The notes under the pieces: generated by a model
What the model was told of the DNA's origin: nothing
What the model saw: only the letters and a program-made list of their open reading frames with translations
Databases searched by the model: none
Shown here: in pieces, positions 3,736 to 4,705 of the stretch
Layout of the letters: every line of letters starts with the position of its first letter
Position numbering within the stretch: the first letter of the stretch is position 1
Program-made: the position numbers and the translations under genes
DNA from: Nanobdellota archaeon
Lineage (GTDB): Archaea; Nanobdellota; Nanobdellia; Woesearchaeales; JAHWHD01
Assembly (NCBI GenBank): GCA_034722435.1
Contig: JAYENX010000039.1
Coordinates: 1-33,306 of the forward strand
DNA length: 33,306 nt
Direction: 5' to 3'

Positions 3736-3751
3736 TGGGGCTACTGGGATT
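3736..3751 (-). repeat. Distal copy of the tRNA-Trp 3' end (att-like direct repeat)
   Basis: TGGGGCTACTGGGA at 3736-3749 is identical to 4481-4494 (18/19 over 3731-3749 vs 4476-4494); minus strand 3751-3736 reads AATCCCAGTAGCCCCA = nt 58-73 of the spliced tRNA. Confidence 0.9.
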
Positions 3752-3803
3752 ACCACTGGACACTGGACAACCGTGGTTAAATTATATATATTCAATTGTA
3801 TAT

Positions 3804-3811
3804 TTTAAATA
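3804..3811 (+). promoter_or_regulatory. TATA-like box for a probable leaderless LAGLIDADG transcript
   Basis: TTTAAATA about 23 nt upstream of TTG at 3834; no RBS seen. Confidence 0.4.
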
Positions 3812-3833
3812 TTATGTTATTTTGTGATTTAAA

Positions 3834-4553
3834 TTGAATAATAATAATAATAATAATAATAATAATTTAATTATCCCTCTTGATTTTACATGCAATCTTG
3901 CAGAATTTGTTGGAATACATTTTGGTGATGGTTCTATGATTTATGGTCCTAATTATAAATATCGGGTTGCTTATGCTTGTAACTTAAATGAGGTTGATTA
4001 TGTAGAGTATTTTCAAAATTTGTTTTATGAATTATTTAATATTAAGTTAAAAAAAACATTATACTTTAAAAAGAATTGTATTGAATTATATTATTATTCT
4101 AAAAAGTTTTGTGAATATATGATTAATGTATTACAAGTTCCTTCTGGTAGAAAGACTAATTTGATTATTCCTCAATATATTCGGTCTAATAGATTATTAA
4201 CAATTGCTTTTCTTAGAGGTCTTTTTGATACTGATGGTTGTTTAACTGTTCAGCGAGATGGGAAATATAAGTATCTTCTTGCTAAAATAACTACTTCACT
4301 TCCTGATTTTGCATATTCAATTTCTAAATTGTTAAAATCTCTTAATATACATTGTTTTGTTACAAAGAAAGGAAAACATAATCCTGGCTGTGATGTGGTT
4401 ATAAGGCATTTGAATGTTATTGAATTTTTGAATCTTGTTAAGCCTGTGAATTCTAAATATTATAGAAAAATGGGAATGTATGGGGCTACTGGGACTTTCG
4501 GAGTAAAGCTTTTTGATCGTTTGACCTTTTGCTTAAACTGTTCGAATTTCTGA
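3834..4553 (+). CDS. Free-standing two-motif LAGLIDADG homing endonuclease (intein/DOD-like)
   Basis: Motif 1 LAEFVGIHFGDGS, motif 2 FLRGLFDTDGC, both with the acidic catalytic position; no intein splicing termini; start uncertain (TTG, no in-frame ATG before motif 1). Confidence 0.9.
   Translation: MNNNNNNNNNNLIIPLDFTCNLAEFVGIHFGDGSMIYGPNYKYRVAYACNLNEVDYVEYFQNLFYELFNIKLKKTLYFKKNCIELYYYSKKFCEYMINVLQVPSGRKTNLIIPQYIRSNRLLTIAFLRGLFDTDGCLTVQRDGKYKYLLAKITTSLPDFAYSISKLLKSLNIHCFVTKKGKHNPGCDVVIRHLNVIEFLNLVKPVNSKYYRKMGMYGATGTFGVKLFDRLTFCLNCSNF
3837..3866 (+). repeat. (AAT)10 microsatellite encoding poly-Asn
   Basis: Ten perfect AAT units directly after the TTG. Confidence 0.95.
4495..4540 (-). other. 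tRNA intron 3 (59/60, 46 nt)
   Basis: BHB: central helix TTCG/CGAA, bulges AA|C and AG|T, outer helix = T-stem, intron hairpin AGT..AAGC/GCTT..ACT with one extra C. Confidence 0.85.
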
Positions 4554-4574
4554 GATGCCATTCCCTTACATCTT
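4547..4574 (-). other. tRNA intron 2 (53/54, 28 nt)
   Basis: BHB: central helix TCTG/CAGA, bulges GG|A and AA|T, intron stem AGATGT/GCATCT. Confidence 0.85.
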
Positions 4575-4589
4575 CCCAGATCCGAGGCT

Positions 4590-4639
4590 ATCTTCAGGGA
4601 GAGTTTATTTCATCGCCTAAAGGCTCATCTCTCCAGCTA
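4590..4639 (-). ncRNA. tRNA intron 1 (37/38, 50 nt), candidate box C/D-type guide for C34 2'-O-methylation
   Basis: BHB: CTCC/GAAG central helix (one mismatch), bulges AG|T and AT|A. CTGGAG is complementary to C32-G37 and its nt pairing with C34 is exactly 5 nt upstream of a D-like ATGA; C-like CGATGA and a CTGA box also present. Confidence 0.75.
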
Positions 4640-4705
4640 CTGGAGGCCCCTATTCTAGCCAGATTATACTATAGCCCCATATGAAATAATTTGATTTTGT
4701 TGAGT

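Follow-up and report, generated by a model that had tools for sequence, protein, structure and literature searches.

How can a gene for a DNA endonuclease settle at the very end of a tRNA gene, with no recombinase beside it, and still leave that tRNA gene whole? The question is raised by contig JAYENX010000039.1 of a Nanobdellota archaeon (order Woesearchaeales; GenBank assembly GCA_034722435.1), the 33,306 nucleotides of which are called the window below. In it, a tRNA-Trp gene abuts a 745-bp stretch whose only long open reading frame (ORF) encodes a LAGLIDADG protein, and the last nucleotides of the tRNA gene are repeated at the far end of this stretch. An earlier note on the sequence had proposed a free-standing homing element that rebuilds the tRNA gene upon insertion. 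Comparison with related genomes largely supports this proposal and makes it probable, in our view, that the stretch is a minimal mobile cassette, composed of a promoter and a LAGLIDADG homing-endonuclease gene, which belongs to a clade tied to tRNA-Trp and homes without a recombinase.

The tRNA-Trp gene and the 745-bp insertion

A search for repeats in the window identified a 20-nt direct repeat with 19 of 20 positions identical and a spacing of 745 bp (for coordinates of this and other features see Table 1). Its perfect core is the 15-mer ATGGGGCTACTGGGA (3735-3749 and 4480-4494), and a 14-nt core coincides exactly with the last exon of the tRNA gene, nucleotides 60-73 of the tRNA. Beyond the repeat, a 4-nt indel is followed by renewed similarity that leads into a T-run (CATT[CCCA]TTTTTCT); on the tRNA strand the proximal copy is followed by five T (4470-4466) and the distal copy by six (3731-3726). 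The duplication of the tRNA 3' end that the earlier note had seen at 3736 and 4481, bracketing 745 bp and with a T-run behind each copy, was borne out in this form. GC-rich 14-mers recurring within 1 kb are expected 0.005 times per 33-kb window (200 first-order Markov simulations). Both junctions are also covered by independently assembled Logan contigs of a brine metagenome (3000-3825 and 3876-5400), which may be the same sample that gave the window assembly.

The tRNA-Trp gene is interrupted by three introns of the bulge-helix-bulge (BHB) type, because of which standard searches miss it: neither ARAGORN (bacterial mode; introns allowed to 1000 nt) nor Rfam (E up to 10) reported a tRNA in the unspliced gene, while the four joined exons give a 74-nt tRNA-Trp(CCA) with a normal cloverleaf in ARAGORN. 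Intron 2 forms a canonical BHB, with the central helix TCTG/CAGA, the inner helix (h') AGATG/CATCT and the bulges GG↓A and AA↓T; intron 3 has the central helix TTCG/CGAA, followed by the bulge AG↓T beside the T-stem. Three comparisons agree and support this model. A relative with about 80% DNA identity (L026/L027) has kept introns 1 and 2 and has no intron 3, reading CAGAAA directly followed by TTCGAATCCCAGTAGCCCCA; the tRNA-Trp gene of G001, a genome of the same genus, has no intron 2 and carries a different 21-nt intron at 59/60; and the tRNA-Leu(TAA) gene of G002, a genome of the same family, has a homologous 59/60 intron with a compensatory change of the central helix (TTCA/TGAA). To judge from these sequences, the proximal copy of the repeat is the functional 3' end of the tRNA, and the tRNA obtained by joining the exons is whole. 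The two bases ahead of the distal copy (AA) match the form of tRNA-Trp without intron 3, and this hints at a duplication older than intron 3.

Table 1. Positions of the tRNA-Trp gene, the cassette and adjoining features in the window
Feature	Position	Strand	Remarks
Host flank	3685..3729	-	T-run and promoter of the downstream 597-aa ORF; directly follows tRNA-Trp at empty sites; ~44/46 identical to G001, aligns with G002
Distal repeat copy	3730..3749	-	Orphan copy of tRNA nt 60-73 and 6 nt; no spliceable context; aligns with the tRNA 3' end at the G001 and G002 empty sites
Inserted cassette	3750..4494	.	745 bp; boundaries ambiguous within the repeat, equally 3730-4474; absent from the orthologous G001 and G002 loci
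Promoter-proximal motif GTTGTCCAGTGTCCAGTGG	3753..3771	-	Abuts the distal copy, with the TATA boxes of the cassette on its other side
Two TATA-like boxes	3777..3814	.	3777-3791 and 3799-3814; flanked by the motif and the ORF start; presumed divergent promoter; conserved in L026
Double-motif LAGLIDADG endonuclease ORF	3834..4553	+	TTG start; conserved protein ends near 4478; tail from ~4479 is antisense of the tRNA 3' exon and introns
(AAT)10 microsatellite	3838..3867	+	Codes for the poly-Asn N-terminus of the ORF; Logan contigs break here; run absent in L026
Proximal repeat copy	4475..4494	-	Functional exon 4 (nt 60-73, 4494-4481) and 6 nt downstream; the 3' bulge AG↓T of intron 3 immediately precedes it
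tRNA-Trp(CCA) gene, three BHB introns	4481..4678	-	Exons read by hand; spliced 74 nt called by ARAGORN
Exon 1	4678-4640	-	Runs to G37, past the anticodon CCA
Intron 1	4639-4590	-	Box C/D-like; at 37/38
Exon 2	4589-4575	-
Intron 2	4574-4547	-	Position 53/54
Exon 3	4546-4541	-	TTCGAA only
Intron 3	4540-4495	-	Position 59/60
Exon 4	4494-4481	-	TCCCAGTAGCCCCA; nt 60-73 of the tRNA

The window belongs to the genome designated G000, and the evidence from empty sites, as well as their intron comparisons, rests on the unpublished genomes G001 and G002. The permease gene beside tRNA-Trp has orthologs in both (77% identity in G001, 59% in G002), and in both the order is permease, tRNA-Trp and then directly the sequence TTTTTTCTTAG(A/G)AAAA(C/G)TTTA...TTTAC.ACT.TTAG, which in the window is found after the distal copy (3729-3685, minus strand). 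Past this flank, the ORF of G002 is a weak, colinear homolog of the 597-aa ORF of the window (E 8e-4); for the ORF at this place in G001, similarity to the 597-aa ORF is not detectable. Thus, filled alleles are present in G000 and the L026 lineage, and empty alleles, for which the earlier note had suggested searching related genomes, are present with both flanks conserved in G001 and G002. Since the sites of G001 and G002 run from tRNA-Trp straight into the distal flank of the window, the comparison shows that the 745 bp have been inserted at the 3' terminus of tRNA-Trp, with duplication of nucleotides 60-73 of the tRNA and the following 6 nt.

The earlier note had considered a larger, integrase-bounded island as another source of the repeat; this is excluded, because the host flank resumes at once on both sides. 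Its description of the insert as encoding only a two-motif LAGLIDADG protein, with no recombinase of its own, agrees with our analysis: the interval contains one long ORF, a member of Pfam LAGLIDADG_3, and no integrase or recombinase was found in the insert or in the examined flanks of related loci.

The endonuclease and its relatives at tRNA genes

The ORF matches Pfam LAGLIDADG_3 at 1e-9. Its two motifs, GIHFGDG (D32) and GLFDTDG (D134), contain catalytic Asp residues that are invariant in 24 members of its clade, the mean column identity being 41%. In the AlphaFold (AF2) model (pLDDT 90.9, pTM 0.89), the order of helices and strands is that expected for two alpha-beta-beta-alpha-beta-beta-alpha domains. 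The best Foldseek matches in the PDB were I-Tsp061I (TM 0.72-0.75), the TliVMA intein and I-DmoI (TM 0.57-0.71), in agreement with a profile search of PDB sequences that matched I-DmoI and intein endonucleases. With its closest counterparts in sequence or structure (I-Tsp061I, I-DmoI, PI-PfuI and the TliVMA intein) the enzyme shares the monomeric double-motif architecture and both catalytic acids. The LAGLIDADG enzymes of archaeal introns and inteins differ from it in that they reside inside rRNA BHB introns or inteins, which are removed as RNA or protein, whereas here the gene is free-standing and the host gene is saved by a duplication at the DNA level.

We calculated the ratio of non-synonymous to synonymous substitution rates (dN/dS) against the 80% relative L026. 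The value of 0.28, at dS 0.43, argues that the LAGLIDADG gene is maintained and not decaying. We regard the protein as a free-standing, monomeric and probably active LAGLIDADG homing endonuclease. In viral contigs only distant homologs were found, 23-34% identical in all but one short segment.

The clade comprises about 30 proteins with 40-50% identity to the window enzyme and one with 80%. DNA was at hand for eight lineages (the window, L026, L014, L031, L034, L035, L036 and L037), and in all eight the gene adjoins tRNA-Trp; in seven it is convergent with the tRNA gene and overlaps its 3' end. A distal copy of the tRNA 3' end is kept in five of the eight. It matches nucleotides 60-73 at 14 of 14 positions both in the window and in L034 (GCA_019322535.1), at 13 of 14 in L031 (JGI metagenome 3300025317), where it is directly preceded by TGTCCAGTGG, at 11 of 14 in L037 (ENA assembly ERZ28563803), where it reaches into the T-arm, and at 10 of 14 in L014 (genome G007, from another family), whose copy is identical to that of L037. 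The distal copy is decayed in the public Logan contigs L026-L030 and degenerate in L036 (GCA_028818155.1). In L035 (ENA assembly ERZ27247121) there is none, and the gene lies upstream of tRNA-Trp on the same strand. LAGLIDADG ORFs that are convergent with a tRNA gene and accompanied by a 3'-end repeat, which the earlier note had suggested seeking in relatives, thus occur in L034, L031, L037 and G007, as well as at the tRNA-Phe gene described below. As to whether relatives have the gene at the same site with the repeat, the site held and the repeat did so only in part, L026, L036 and L035 being the lineages that have the gene at tRNA-Trp without it.

The distal copies of G007 and L037 share TCCCTCCGTCCCCA. 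Those of L031, L037 and G007 are closer to each other (TCCCTSCGTCCCCA) than to the resident tRNAs, while the copies in the window are identical; as judged from the sequences, this likeness fits either copy being the import, provided that the whole tRNA was co-converted. In at least 14 of the 24 aligned clade proteins, the C-terminus is what the antisense strand of the acceptor and T-arm encodes, for example WGxxD[L/S]NP, as was checked on the DNA for L014. Across the order, tRNA-Trp was detectable in 27 of the 61 sampled genomes, and the gene lay beside it only in G000 and G007.

Association with tRNA genes extends to paralogous LAGLIDADG genes (about 30% identity), which were found within 200 nt of tRNA genes at nine of 11 loci. 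One of them forms a cassette of the same architecture at tRNA-Phe(GAA) in G001 (L016, contig C30, 1263-2170): an antisense ORF, a TATA box and TTGTCCAGTGTCCAGTGG are followed by CCCGCGTTCCCATT and a T-run, with a distal copy of 12-14 nt. The orthologous tRNA-Phe gene of G000 (contig C8, 22108-22262) is without a cassette. Within the genus the distribution is therefore reciprocal, the Trp cassette being present in G000 and not in G001, and the Phe cassette in G001 and not in G000.

A second LAGLIDADG paralog of G000 (28% identity) is located on contig C23 at 33500-34263, with the same upstream motif as the window gene (see below). Behind it, in the same orientation, comes a tRNA-like gene whose acceptor is AGCCCCG/CGGGGCT and whose T-arm is interrupted; a 3'-end repeat was not seen at this locus.

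Possible routes of movement and competing explanations

LAGLIDADG enzymes characteristically make double-strand breaks at specific long targets (about 18-22 bp), with a preference for pseudo-palindromes of about 22 bp; the cut is in the central 4 bp and leaves 4-nt 3' overhangs. For the homing cassette that we favor, the enzyme would make its cut at an empty tRNA-Trp gene, within or close to the palindromic T-arm CTGGG-TTCGAA-TCCCAG. The T-arm is a likely cut site because of the preference just described, because the left edge of the duplicated block lies at nucleotides 57-60 in three elements, and because the endonuclease SegB of phage T4 recognizes the same stem-loop. In the homologous repair that follows, the host would use a filled allele as the template for the cassette; the tRNA body would provide the left homology arm, and the second, short copy of the 3' end would be a portable right arm. 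These arms could be used either in synthesis-dependent strand annealing or when a cut circle integrates ends-in. In either case, the tRNA gene would be restored in the DNA itself, an orphan 3' end would stay behind, and the proximal end might be the copy that came with the element.

The LAGLIDADG family, the duplicated-end design and the recognition of a T-arm by SegB are all already known. In fungal mitochondria, mobile ORFs (mORFs) for LAGLIDADG or GIY-YIG enzymes create hybrid genes: they bring along a copy of the host gene's 3' end, and the native end comes to lie downstream of them, as in atp6 of Allomyces macrogynus and in atp6, atp9, cox2 and nad3 of Glomus sp. (PMC3630166). As at the tRNA-Trp locus, an endonuclease ORF sits in the 3' part of a conserved gene, a second 3' copy keeps this gene whole while the other is an orphan, a recombinase is lacking, and presence varies among close relatives. 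The same layout is seen here in the succession of tRNA body, exon 4, ORF and orphan exon 4, with an intact spliced tRNA. The two systems differ in that the target is a mitochondrial protein gene there and a chromosomal archaeal tRNA gene here, that the duplicated block here is only 14-25 nt, and that the ORF here is antisense with its own promoter, whereas mORFs are fused in frame. SegB is a free-standing GIY-YIG homing endonuclease encoded in the tRNA cluster of T4; its site includes the T-psi-C stem-loop, and it promotes intron-less homing with co-conversion of flanks (PMC2330249). It resembles the window enzyme in being free-standing and encoded beside tRNA genes, but belongs to another enzyme family and to a phage rather than a cellular genome, and a duplication of a tRNA end is not reported for it. 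The literature searches brought up no account of LAGLIDADG cassettes at archaeal tRNA genes.

Several observations weigh against homing of the proposed kind. The sole run with window DNA, which is kept as contigs and is blind to rare forms, showed neither an empty allele nor a circle or joint. The distal copy has been lost in L026 and L036, and in L035 the gene is on the 5' side of tRNA-Trp and there is no repeat. A rebuilt tRNA gene keeps a cleavable T-arm, so that cutting of the filled allele must somehow be avoided; introns 2 and 3 bracket TTCGAA exactly at this locus, but T-arm introns (53/54 or 59/60) are not enriched in filled loci (4-5 of 8, versus 5 of 10 loci without the gene). An identity block extending from the T-loop to just past the 3' end has the classic shape of a tyrosine-integrase attachment (att) site, and four tyrosine recombinases are encoded elsewhere in G000. 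Finally, purifying selection and a host regulatory motif fit a domesticated gene as well.

The first of the competing explanations, which we consider unlikely, is a miniature integrative element mobilized in trans. The 20-bp repeats would be attL and attR of a tyrosine recombinase supplied by the genome, a helper virus or a plasmid, and the LAGLIDADG gene would be cargo. The extent of the identity block would place the repeats in the T-loop class of att sites, G000 encodes four PF00589 recombinases, all on other contigs, and an archaeal insertion that bears a recombinase and has left tRNA fragments is described by Sugahara et al. 2012 (PMC3293823). Elements integrated into tRNA genes (pNOB8/SSV-type elements; the tRNA-Thr locus of Caldiarchaeum, PMC3293823) likewise show direct repeats of a tRNA part and orphan tRNA fragments, but they encode a DNA recombinase, whereas the sole ORF here is a LAGLIDADG nuclease. 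The repeat itself (19/20, from nucleotide 60) suits integrase elements and fungal mORFs alike and does not discriminate between them. What speaks against mobilization in trans is that the LAGLIDADG gene is the sole constant gene over the eight Trp lineages and the tRNA-Phe paralog, with no recombinase in any examined flank, that the left edge of the repeat is not fixed but varies (nucleotides 49, 57, 60 and 62), and that the enzyme keeps its catalytic residues under purifying selection. Moreover, different LAGLIDADG clades pair with different tRNAs, as is expected if the endonuclease sets the target.

Also improbable, and ranked next, is a once-mobile gene that is now domesticated and immobile, with a host role in, for example, DNA repair or defence under control of the TGTCCAGTG motif, the distal repeat being a fossil. 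This explanation draws on the promoter of the cassette. We infer a promoter function for the region with the two TATA-like boxes, and next to it lies the 19-nt motif given in Table 1, which was found at 10 loci in G000, each time about 10 nt from a TATA box. At these loci the motif is 35-62 nt from divergent genes, among them two LAGLIDADG paralogs, two Bro-N-like genes, an Lhr-like helicase, a Cas4/RecB-like nuclease and a 246-aa ORF. Of 61 related Woesearchaeales genomes, 34 contain the motif, at a maximum of 14 copies, the reversed control pattern giving 0-1 per genome. Its recurrence at 10 loci and throughout the order, including genomes in which our query found no LAGLIDADG homolog, argues for a host cis-element carried by the cassette. 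We rejected the motif as an element end or as a binding or cleavage site of the endonuclease, since it stands at 10 promoters of G000 and is frequent also in G015 and G024, without a LAGLIDADG homolog by this query. The motif looks like the operator of an order-wide regulon, possibly one for DNA repair or defence. For the homing cassette that we favor, too, expression is probably tied to this host element (TGTCCAGTGTCCAGTGG).

The company of helicase, nuclease and Bro-N-like genes under the same motif would suit a domesticated gene, as would the dN/dS of 0.28 and the presence of the cassette at the same site in the 80% relative. On the other hand, the gene is absent from the locus in genomes of the same genus and the same family and is patchy over the order, the distal copy in the window is still identical at 19 of 20 positions while the adjoining non-coding DNA is only about 60-65% identical to L026, and a host function leaves unexplained why the ORF constantly abuts the tRNA end.

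A chance repeat or an assembly artefact, to which one might resort given that the source is a metagenome-assembled genome of 60 contigs and that other assemblies break at the (AAT)n repeat of the window, is effectively refuted by the simulated expectation, by the Logan contigs spanning both junctions, and by the same architecture in independent assemblies from other samples (L026-L030, L031, L034 and L037).

Three further arrangements were rejected. The distal copy is not a trans-spliced exon or a piece of a split tRNA, as the GTGGTAA upstream of it cannot pair with TTCG in the way the proximal copy does, and it has no complementary trailer. Nor is the ORF part of one giant tRNA intron that would extend to the distal copy: the end of intron 3, GAAAG↓T, abuts the proximal copy as in the tRNA-Leu gene of G002, and the T-arm of L026 is continuous. 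A target-site duplication by a staggered cut conflicts with the 4-nt overhangs of LAGLIDADG enzymes and with the distal copies of L037 and G007, which differ from the proximal ones at 3-4 of 14 positions yet match each other.

If the tRNA-Trp cassette indeed moves by homing, a design of endonuclease and duplicated 3' end that has so far been described for fungal mitochondrial protein genes would extend to an archaeal tRNA gene. Genes for tRNAs are classic landing sites of islands and viruses that bring an integrase; here the same outcome, an intact tRNA gene with an insert at its 3' end and a direct repeat, would be reached by a 745-bp unit with a homing endonuclease as its only gene. With the enzyme, an empty site and a filled site all defined, the system is open to testing, and new long targets of LAGLIDADG enzymes are of practical value for genome engineering. 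More tentatively, Woesearchaeota may harbor a large, so far undescribed family of tRNA-specific free-standing LAGLIDADG cassettes that integrate with no recombinase, although we regard this as rather doubtful at present. In such a family each nuclease would cut the palindromic T-arm of one tRNA gene, a 14-25-nt copy of the tRNA end would be a portable arm that works with any flanks, and T-loop introns would either give immunity to the cutting or be scars left by insertions of this kind. Were this so, homing endonucleases would be tied to the origin of fragmented archaeal tRNA genes.

Introns, motif loci and neighboring genes

The locus also bears on the frequent interruption of archaeal tRNA genes, as T-loop introns differ among three close genomes and sit at the edge of the duplicated block. 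They turn over among close relatives: G000 has introns at 53/54 and 59/60 (window 4495-4574), the 80% relative only at 53/54 (L026, 3630-3700), and G001 only a different one at 59/60 (L038, 2790-2845). Intron 3 is homologous, with 77% identity over 56 nt, to the 59/60 intron of tRNA-Leu(TAA) in G002, which is of another genus (L025, about 1995-2060, minus strand), and this similarity indicates one intron family common to different tRNAs. In G002, the first 17 nt of tRNA-Trp (GGGGCTGTAGTATAACC) are present twice, about 87 nt apart, just upstream of the gene and inside it (L039, 2681-2790), which may reflect either a D-loop intron or the footprint of a 5'-end duplication.

In the whole G000 genome (1.3 Mb, 94.5% complete), ARAGORN with introns allowed found only 13 tRNAs and Rfam RF00005 only 10. 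Because so few were detected in a genome of this completeness, most of its tRNA genes must be multi-intron or otherwise disrupted. It has been reported that tRNA-Trp is undetected by tRNAscan-SE in 30 of 123 complete Woesearchaeales genomes (bioRxiv 10.64898/2026.05.13.725050). An interrupted tRNA-Trp gene at loci such as the one in the window may explain why this gene often goes "missing" in the order.

The permease gene that adjoins tRNA-Trp in the window (4719-5852) belongs to the Trp/Tyr family of amino-acid permeases. In several further families, too, a permease-like ORF comes after tRNA-Trp (L002, L006 and L010); the linkage of tRNA-Trp with an aromatic amino-acid transporter may be conserved in the order. 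In the 80% relative, about 850 extra bp that are absent from the window separate tRNA-Trp from the permease (L026 3830-4690, L027 1512-2359); they contain a 272-aa ORF with no Pfam match.

The 10 motif loci of G000 are the one in the window (3753-3771) and those on contigs C15, C20, C23 (two), C36, C41, C45 (two) and C58. The motif is laid out as a tandem of TGTCCAGTG and TCCAGTGG, and genes for TyrRS and AlaRS are found on its other side. Two of these loci, C20 1150-1250 and C41 18440-18535, are similar to each other and non-coding, with the motif after a TATA box at the start, further copies of TGTCCAGTG or of its complement about 70-90 nt downstream, and a T-run at the end; they could be small RNAs.

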